Source: Escherichia coli
GTDB taxonomy: Bacteria; Pseudomonadota; Gammaproteobacteria; Enterobacterales; Enterobacteriaceae
Direction: 5' to 3' (one strand)
Length of the DNA stretch: 64,000 bases
Assembly: GCF_044324875.1 (NCBI RefSeq)
Contig: NZ_CP172187.1
Numbering within the stretch: the stretch's first letter is position 1; each line of letters begins with the position of its first letter. The notes under the pieces were generated by a model. That model worked only from the letters and a program-made list of their open reading frames with translations, made no database searches and was not told where the DNA came from. Shown piece by piece: positions 30,276-31,303 of this stretch. The translations under genes and the position numbers were made by a program.

Positions 30276-30479
30276 TCATTGACTGGCTGGCCAGAAGCTG
30301 GGGCTGGTTGCTCTCTGTGATTTCATTTTTGCACGTTTCAGGCAGTGCTGTATTCGTCTCTGGATACAGATCCGATCATCTTCCTGAAGGTAGTTCAGCA
30401 GCAATTCCTGCCAGCGTGCAGCGGCTCTGCGCCATAATCCCCGCTGTTCGAGCTCTTCAGCTTTTTTATCAGTAATCAT
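30276..30479 (-). CDS. PerC/Pch-family small transcriptional activator
   Basis: 67 aa MITDKKAEELEQRGLWRRAAARWQELL..., matching the AE.LE..GLWRRAA.RW signature remembered for PerC/Pch; GAGGTG RBS; track ORF starts 2 codons earlier. Confidence 0.5.
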   Translation of the reverse strand: MITDKKAEELEQRGLWRRAAARWQELLLNYLQEDDRICIQRRIQHCLKRAKMKSQRATSPSFWPASQ

Positions 30480-30568
30480 ATTCACCTCTGCTCTGGTCGG
30501 TCATGCTTTCTTCCCGGTATGTTATAGTTATTAAGATACTTTTGTCCCTGTTCTGTTCCGGAGTGAAC

Positions 30569-31303
30569 ATGATTTTTGTCTGTTCTGTTGTACTGGCTGG
30601 CAGGGCATTCACCCTGCAGTTTGCCGGGAAAATGCTGTCCCTTTCTGCAGGAGATGTGCTTCTGATTGATGATGCTGATCGTGAGGATTTTCAGCCTCAT
30701 GCTGAGCATATCACTGAGGTGAGGCTGGATGAAAATATCATCCGCAGATATCTGGAGAGTTGTGGCGGCAACCGGGAGGCCGACAACACGGTTTCTTCTG
30801 GTTTCATCAGAGTGGCCTTTGCTCATCCTGCGTTGTTGCGTGACGTTATGCATCATCTGAATTCGGGAGGATTTGTTCATCCCGGATTTTCCGAGCAGAT
30901 GTTTTTTTCCTGCATTGCTGTCTTTGCATCAAAAAAAGGCTTTCTTCCTTTGTTGCTGGGCGGAATGCTTTCTGTGGCCGGGAGAGTGAGGCATATCATC
31001 TGTACTGACCTTTCACGCCAGTGGAAGCTGCGGGATGTCAGCAGTCGTTTGTATATGAGTGAAAGTCAGCTGAAAAAGAAACTGAAGGAAGAAGGATGTT
31101 CGTTCACCGGAGTGCTTCTGGATGTGAGAATGGGCTATGCACGCCGTCTGTTACAGGCCCGTCTGCCGGTCAACAGGGTGGCCGCGCAGTGTGGTTATGT
31201 AAGCACATCTTATTTTATCTGCGTGTTCAGGGAATGTTTTGGCGTCACGCCTCACCGGATGCTGGCGCTTCAGGAGCACGGGCAGCATAAAAGTGAATGC
31301 TGA
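30569..31303 (+). CDS. AraC-family transcriptional regulator (Rns/PerA/AggR-like architecture)
   Basis: C-terminal double HTH (SRQWKLRDVSSRLYMSESQLKKKLKEEG...YVSTSYFICVFRECFGVTPHR); GGAG RBS before the ATG at 30569. Confidence 0.7.
   Translation: MIFVCSVVLAGRAFTLQFAGKMLSLSAGDVLLIDDADREDFQPHAEHITEVRLDENIIRRYLESCGGNREADNTVSSGFIRVAFAHPALLRDVMHHLNSGGFVHPGFSEQMFFSCIAVFASKKGFLPLLLGGMLSVAGRVRHIICTDLSRQWKLRDVSSRLYMSESQLKKKLKEEGCSFTGVLLDVRMGYARRLLQARLPVNRVAAQCGYVSTSYFICVFRECFGVTPHRMLALQEHGQHKSEC

Follow-up and report, generated by a model that had tools for sequence, protein, structure and literature searches.

Organization of the locus

The stretch of Escherichia coli DNA analysed here (64,000 nucleotides of contig NZ_CP172187.1, assembly GCF_044324875.1; hereafter the window) carries two divergent regulatory genes beside a resistance island. 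On the minus strand, a perC-like open reading frame (ORF) at 30276–30479 encodes 67 amino acids from its ATG, or 69 from an upstream GTG. On the plus strand, an intact ORF at 30569–31303 encodes a 244-aa AraC-family regulator, which on its alignments falls in the YdeO/GadW/AppY class. The two start codons are separated by an 89-bp intergenic region (30480–30568) that has an AT-rich centre and contains both Shine-Dalgarno sequences. The original prediction, made from the sequence alone, had described these two ORFs and their divergent arrangement, and what it observed is confirmed, although its interpretation is only partly supported. The two genes are uncharacterised but unsurprising members of known families and are already annotated: PGAP labels the perC-like product (WP_021536203.1) ‘PerC family transcriptional regulator’ and that of the AraC gene ‘helix-turn-helix domain-containing protein’.

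Most of the locus lies on a mobile two-gene module (30302–31481), the left edge of which falls inside the perC-like gene. The edges are blastn end-points against the sequences L003, L014, L015, L022 and L030. The pair is 262 bp from a 38-bp terminal inverted repeat (29977–30014), the right end of a resistance island of ~26.4 kb, and we take this repeat, by its sequence, to be a Tn1721/Tn21-type transposon end. It overlaps the stop of a Tn3-family tnpA ORF (28161–29981). Aligned with L001, a relative plasmid that lacks the interruption, the window loses homology after 3643 and regains it at 30013, which puts the island at ~3644–30012 of the window, and the island boundary that had been placed next to the two genes is therefore genuine. 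By comparison with L001, the island is inserted in a ProQ/FinO-family (FopA-like) gene, the 3′ remnant of which occupies 30015–30221 on the plus strand. The module lies in the cargo region of the plasmid, directly downstream of this gene, and the resistance island beside it arrived later. The intact ProQ/FINO coding sequence in L001 measures 624 nt, and 54 bp separate its end from the perC-like stop codon. Window positions 30013–30238 match the corresponding gene end of a further plasmid (L005) at 94% identity, and the ORF at 30042–30221 matches phrog_21591.

The right edge of the module, at 31481, lies ahead of a PTS/hydrolase/GntR cassette, and in other replicons different DNA follows. Hence the AraC gene is no remnant of a truncated metabolic operon. 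We also considered the AraC protein as regulator of that cassette and rejected this, given that the module boundary lies between them and that the cassette has its own GntR. There is no adhesin operon in the window, and the anti-phage defence models of PADLOC gave no matches. The original prediction had noted that neither gene has an obvious target operon beside it; this stands, and makes action in trans on the host a reasonable expectation.

A truncated PerC-family gene

The perC-like ORF contains KKAEELEQRGLWRRAAARWQ, and its assignment to the PerC family holds: residues 1–55 align with model positions 1–55 of 90 in Pfam PerC (PF06069; E 5.8e-13, 49.4 bits). In a 34-sequence family alignment that takes in genuine PerC of enteropathogenic E. 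coli (EPEC), eight residues are invariant (A7, L10, E11, R17, R18, A19, W23 and C46; N-terminal motif A-x2-LE-x2-G-x2-RRAA-x-RW ... C) and the window copy has all eight. What had been overlooked is that the ORF is not full length. It consists of codons 1–59 of a PerC-family gene followed by 8 unrelated codons (PSFWPASQ) and a stop. Near-identical genes elsewhere encode 88–102 aa, the native protein having 102 aa (sequence P0017, which represents 86 member sequences); the window protein equals these forms through residue 59 and diverges after it, with the DNA breakpoint at 30302. Homologues of ~50–58% identity are 97–105 aa long and most end in a C-terminal AIxxEKEMGI(Y/H)RxRK that is absent from the window ORF. 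Within this motif, at least 90% of the 34 family members retain M79 and G80. The family architecture of ~90–105 aa, with a Met-Gly motif and a C-terminal helix, is thus missing from the window ORF, and on these comparisons we regard it as shown that the gene lost its 3′ part when the module joined the present plasmid region.

In the structure that AlphaFold2 predicts for the 102-aa form (mean pLDDT 83.8), residues 5–13, 16–29, 33–61, 65–79 and 85–94 form helices, and the pLDDT over residues 71–80 averages 94. On this model, a break at residue 59 would remove helix 4 and everything beyond it and leave a three-helix core. A sequence search retrieved no solved structure related to the PerC-like protein. 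The fold search with the model gave no significant PDB match and no DNA-binding fold, the best matches being MIT-like helical bundles (E 0.9).

[quoted passage not shown] In favour of this reading, the Pfam match, the eight invariant residues and the N-terminal motif are common to PerC of EPEC and to PchA–E of enterohaemorrhagic E. coli (EHEC), and the C-terminal Met-Gly motif of EPEC PerC recurs in the 102-aa native form. However, identity to EPEC PerC is only 29–32%, and the window copy, being cut at residue 59, has lost the conserved C-terminal part. The arrangement also differs from that of perABC on the EAF plasmid of EPEC, in which the genes are co-directional; here they are divergent and there is no perB. 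Membership of the family does not predict activation of ler in any case. PchD and PchE have little effect on LEE (PMC6265319), PerC-like proteins encoded on islands likewise have little or none on LEE1, and one PerC-annotated island protein represses LEE1 and was suspected by its authors to be an ANR protein (PMC11773190). Activation of LEE1 is absent for most members of the family that have been assayed (PMC6265319, PMC11773190). By analogy with these proteins, activation of LEE1 by the window copy appears unlikely.

The AraC-family regulator

The larger ORF is an AraC-family regulator, as had been proposed. Its product has a C-terminal double helix-turn-helix (HTH_18, E 3.1e-16, and two HTH_AraC matches), and the GadX DNA-binding domain (3mkl) matches it at E 2.9e-17. 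The best NCBIfam model is YdeO (NF007407), which aligns at 203.7 bits over residues 1–231 (positions 1–230 of 253). As this score is below the equivalog cutoff of 348 bits, the protein is not a YdeO orthologue, and it differs from YdeO also in its plasmid location, without safA or an EvgA-type upstream context. In blastp, YdeO aligns at 42% identity over 231 aa (E 1e-67) and GadW (35%) and AppY (29%) align over the full length from residue 1, the proteins having a common start, M-x-x-VCSV. GadX is 40% identical, in the C-terminal half only.

The label ‘Rns/PerA-like’ is not sustained by these alignments. PerA aligns to residues 104–230 only (32%), and although the HTH region does resemble Rns, CsvR and ToxT (E ~1e-13), these align from about residue 89–120 onward; VirF, CofS and an ETEC gene annotated hilD are matched from about residue 113–137. 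For PerA, Rns, ToxT and VirF, the similarity is thus confined to the C-terminal HTH domain (residues ~104–232). The protein therefore differs from the Rns/CfaD/AggR/PerA class in having no full-length similarity to it and no adjacent adhesin or pilus operon. Judged by these alignments, it is an intact YdeO/GadW/AppY-class regulator and not a Rns/PerA-like one. Related proteins occur in phages: phrog_1450 matches over the full length (E 1.5e-53), and homologues at 33–37% identity are found in lambdoid phages, a P1-like phage and an Stx2k phage.

The 244-aa start, rather than that of a 266-aa ORF, is correct, given that homologues open with the same MIFVCSV, that the DNA resembles that of diverged homologues from 30553 onward and that YdeO, GadW and AppY align from residue 1.

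The intergenic region

In both genes a good Shine-Dalgarno sequence precedes the start codon by five bases, and a 12-nt inverted repeat, GTGAAYATGATT, spans both start codons. The 89-bp spacer has one SNP among 8 aligned copies. A consensus scan found no convincing sigma-70 promoter in the spacer, and a promoter and terminator scan of the locus did no better than on shuffled sequence. AraC-dependent promoters often lack good −35 elements, and the promoter scan is for that reason uninformative. Presumably both promoters lie within the 89 bp; a spacer this short and near-invariant would be consistent, too, with the two genes being controlled together.

Conservation of the pairing

The original prediction had treated the genes as a regulator pair, and conserved synteny would have been a sign of such coupling. 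We discarded it, as the partner is never adjacent in contigs with diverged homologues of either gene. No perC-like gene was found near the diverged AraC homologues (75% and 63% identity) by tblastn at E values up to 10. From the other side, the PerC homologues of ~55% identity and more distant members of the family, located in P1-like phage-plasmids, on genomic islands and in phages, have no AraC neighbour, and neither do the PerC-family genes in Pantoea, Klebsiella (on a phage-plasmid), Serratia, E. albertii, a genomic island and other plasmids. In the phages inspected, the AraC homologue was without a PerC neighbour. DNA similarity to AraC homologues ends 16 bp upstream of the AraC start codon, and similarity to PerC homologues ends ~9 bp upstream of the perC-like start. 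The unconserved neighbourhood and the loss of similarity so close to each start argue that the pair is a mosaic juxtaposition that did not co-evolve.

The surroundings of the two diverged AraC homologues differ. For the 75% homologue, on another RelE/ProQ plasmid, an hdeA-like gene lies at a distance of 1.1 kb, a weak hint at acid resistance, the hdeA-like gene being itself frameshifted. The 63% homologue adjoins FimB/E-like recombinases and a chaperone-usher fimbrial operon, as a virulence regulator of fimbrial loci might. A precedent for the gene combination comes from EHEC effector prophages, for which a review associates Psr-type AraC regulators with Pch genes (PMC10877973); as in the window, an acid-resistance-type AraC gene and a PerC-family gene would there share one mobile element. 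Both observations agree with the reading of the locus as a virulence-regulator pair.

Distribution and integrity of the module

The module (30302–31481, 1.18 kb) recurs in 190 plasmid records at 98.8–100% identity. Among 5426 complete E. coli genomes it is present in 192, at 188 places on plasmids and 32 on chromosomes, and the P1-like phage phi456 also carries it. Plasmids typed as IncK2/Z have the same perC truncation, with the module between the ProQ/FinO gene and parA. Within the literature searched, no paper connects IncK or IncI plasmids with PerC or AraC genes. An aatA-like autotransporter gene lies downstream of the module in 15 plasmids. We considered this autotransporter as the native target and rejected it, because the AraC–IS–autotransporter order is limited to those 15 plasmids and an IS and gene fragments lie between.

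Carriers of the module are mostly from poultry or human faeces, and the GC content is ~48–50%, unlike perA and rns genes, which are AT-rich. Both points weigh further against a PerC/Pch-type ler activator paired with a PerA/Rns-type regulator and, taken with the low identity to EPEC PerC, the missing C-terminal part and the restricted PerA alignment, make that reading highly improbable.

The same data raise the question of whether the module does anything at present. It could be a decaying hitch-hiker, IS-shuffled debris without present function, in which the perC-like ORF would be an open pseudogene fragment and the AraC gene an orphan. The flanks of the module elsewhere fit this: it is bordered there by IS1, IS1414, IS3-family or IS66 elements and by part of an iron-dependent alcohol dehydrogenase gene. 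So does the perC-like 3′ end, which is cut at many points (44, 59, 64, 79 and 88 residues, and assorted fusions), giving products of 44 to ~134 aa; in L004 the cut lies deeper, at 30349, and some module copies are without perC altogether. The AraC gene in L022 has four single-base insertions, and the 89-bp spacer has no convincing sigma-70 promoter, although, as noted, the promoter scan is uninformative. Near-identical AraC alleles differ by 4–5 non-synonymous against 1–2 synonymous changes, counts that are far too small to indicate relaxed selection. Between alleles of the perC-like gene, the N-terminal 59 codons have 0 non-synonymous and 2 synonymous differences, so that a loss of function would be no more than a possibility. 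Against decay, the large majority of the ~190 plasmids keep the AraC ORF intact, and dN/dS is ~0.2 against the 75% and 63% homologues, which points to purifying selection and to the AraC family being a working protein. The Shine-Dalgarno sequences of both genes are likewise good and correctly spaced. On balance we consider a module without function doubtful.

Resemblance to ANR proteins

The PerC-like protein also aligns with the NCBIfam model of the ANR (AraC negative regulator) family (NF033650), whose members are small anti-activators of AraC/XylS proteins and modulate H-NS, residues 5–51 matching positions 7–53 of 54 at 22.6 bits (E 6.9e-5), which is below the curated cutoff of 32 bits. 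The same model scores genuine EPEC PerC at 13.3 bits and E. albertii PerC at 18.1 bits, and the PerC and ANR families evidently have a homologous core in common. The ANR signature consists of A10, E14, A22, W26, A29, W43 and R47 (PMC4983702). In our hand alignment five of the seven are matched, by A7, E11, A19, W23 and R42, and the equivalents of A29 and W43 are Leu and Cys. In size, too, the 67-aa protein compares with the ANR proteins Aar, Cnr and Rnr, which are under 10 kDa with three helices: the modelled helices 5–13, 16–29 and 33–61 are kept and the predicted core spans nearly the whole 54-position model.

This likeness suggests another function for the pair, that of an activator and anti-activator cassette. 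The PerC-like protein would bind the neighbouring AraC protein, H-NS or both and damp the activity of the AraC regulator, which would itself drive both promoters, giving a feedback loop. The match over the whole core, at a higher score than that of EPEC PerC, agrees with such a role, as do the signature residues together with the conserved Cys, the retention of exactly the three-helix core and a model with neither a DNA-binding fold nor a significant PDB match. The island-encoded, PerC-annotated repressor of LEE1 that was suspected to be an ANR protein is a further parallel (PMC11773190), and the proteins that Aar binds include GadX and GadW, both related to the AraC protein encoded next to it (PMC4983702). 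However, the ANR score falls short of the cutoff and is far exceeded by the 49.4 bits of Pfam PerC, the native protein extends further and has a PerC-type C-terminal helix, and a Cys stands in place of the tryptophan that Aar needs for its activity (consensus W43; PMC4983702). The adjacency is absent in diverged homologues of either gene. We hold an activator and anti-activator cassette to be unlikely.

A bolder version would have the truncation itself turn a PerC-type protein into a minimal ANR-like anti-activator, so that the cassette with the YdeO-like regulator re-tunes acid resistance and H-NS-silenced genes and thereby aids passage through the stomach or crop and colonisation of the poultry and human gut. 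This we think very unlikely.

Probable function and targets

The reading that we prefer, with a probability of roughly 55%, is that the locus is IS-shuffled mobile cargo carrying a YdeO-class AraC regulator and a truncated PerC, and not a PerA/PerC virulence switch. The two genes would have become neighbours through mosaic assembly, and the AraC protein would act in trans on the host chromosome. The truncated PerC-like protein would keep the modelled three-helix N-terminal core, which is all that ANR anti-activators consist of, and this remnant may be either impaired or reduced to a protein–protein modulator of H-NS or of the AraC protein.

For the AraC protein of such cargo, the most probable targets, by analogy, would be the gadE and hdeA promoters and with them glutamate-dependent acid resistance (AR2, acid fitness island), an assignment that rests on 29–42% identity to characterised regulators, with a YdeO score of 203.7 bits against a cutoff of 348. 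The AR2 network is proposed because all characterised close relatives converge there: YdeO, GadW, GadX and AppY feed the gadE/AR2 network (PMC10057817), and the EHEC prophage-borne PatE and PsrB bind hdeA and gadE (PMC10877973). The likeness of PatE and PsrA/PsrB to the 244-aa protein is drawn from the literature; like AppY, PatE and Psr, that protein is carried on a mobile element without an adjacent target. An adhesin target is also possible, given the fimbrial operon beside the 63% homologue and the 15 plasmids in which the module precedes the aatA-like autotransporter.

If the YdeO-like regulator does activate chromosomal acid resistance, a widespread family of resistance plasmids associated with poultry and humans would carry a modifier of host physiology, and gut transmission could be affected, as by prophage-borne PatE, PsrB and AppY. 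For annotation, ‘PerC family’ should not be read as ‘ler activator’, since there is no sharp line between the family and the ANR anti-activators and truncated copies are frequent.

We also looked at AutA and AutR of avian pathogenic E. coli as possible counterparts, since both an autotransporter and the acid fitness island come under their control; being of the LuxR/GerE type, they are unrelated to the AraC protein described here (PMC4844996).

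Replicon backbone and resistance island

Two parts of the window resemble different plasmid types. The region 39000-63900, including 59181-59290, carries the FinP RNA and traJ 5' UTR, sok and a group II intron and shares 97% identity with leading and transfer regions of the F type, e.g. NC_013122, whereas 18200-43403 matches, at 98.5-100% identity, a plasmid assigned to IncK2/Z that has an I-type transfer system. Judged by this divided sequence likeness, the window replicon is a mosaic.

The resistance island of approximately 26.4 kb (3644-30012) is inserted within a ProQ/FinO-family (FopA-like) gene, the halves of which lie at about 3230-3643 and 30015-30221. 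The stretch 18200-35455 is 99.99% identical to p135-2, the annotation of which places merR/merT, tet(A), blaTEM-1 and Tn3 in the island, and an attI/aminoglycoside leader is found at 8432-8503. In IncI1 plasmids, replication is controlled by an antisense RNA, to which FopA binds. By analogy with this role of FopA, insertion of the island might disturb copy-number control of the plasmid. On the other side of the regulator genes, a cassette at 31620-34926 encodes a HAD-like hydrolase together with a PTS IIBC component and a regulator of the GntR/HutC type. The PTS component belongs to the N-acetylglucosamine type and, at 573.6 bits, exceeds the domain cutoff. L001, a related plasmid without the resistance island, lacks most of the cassette through a deletion of 31813-35323.

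Start region of the regulator pair

A 12-nt inverted repeat, GTGAAYATGATT (30474-30485 and 30563-30574, 11/12 matching), lies at the starts of the divergent perC-like and AraC genes and covers the spacer and start codon of each, so that both proteins start (V)NMI. About 0.2 such repeats are estimated to occur by chance in the region, and the repeat may therefore be coincidental or may serve both genes as a translation-initiation or operator element.

Related regulators and their surroundings

A homologue 63% identical to the window AraC protein occurs in three comparison sequences (L007 6001-12729, L008 2553-9281 and L009 1697-8425), with two FimB/FimE-like recombinase genes approximately 1.2 kb away and, after these, a chaperone-usher operon for fimbriae. 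This arrangement suggests that part of this AraC subfamily regulates phase-variable fimbriae. A closer homologue (75% identity; in the region L005 2050-8257) occupies the same plasmid position as the window AraC gene, in the order RelE-like toxin, antitoxin, ProQ/FinO and then cargo; no perC-like gene lies beside it in that region, and a frameshifted hdeA-like acid-chaperone gene is found 1.1 kb downstream. In the phage phiSTEC1575-Stx2k (L032 4001-6324), a YdeO-like AraC gene, the product of which is 33.5% identical to the window AraC protein, is located in the late-gene region directly upstream of stx2AB and the tRNA genes there.

The mobile module with both regulator genes is separated by 2-3 kb from an autotransporter gene of 3,498 nt in 15 plasmids and in the P1-like phage phi456 (for example, L003 13839-17336, L014 2031-5528, L015 1846-5343 and L030 10883-14380), with IS3-family and IS91 remnants in between. 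In size and flanks, this aatA-like gene agrees with the published description of the APEC adhesin gene aatA (PMC2944236).

PerC-family genes also occur on a chromosomal island similar to those that are phage-inducible (L029 6794-11787), where three of them adjoin a ProQ/FinO-family gene, ssb and a primase gene; PerC-family genes seem to belong regularly to replication-proximal modules of this kind (compare L027, a further comparison sequence).
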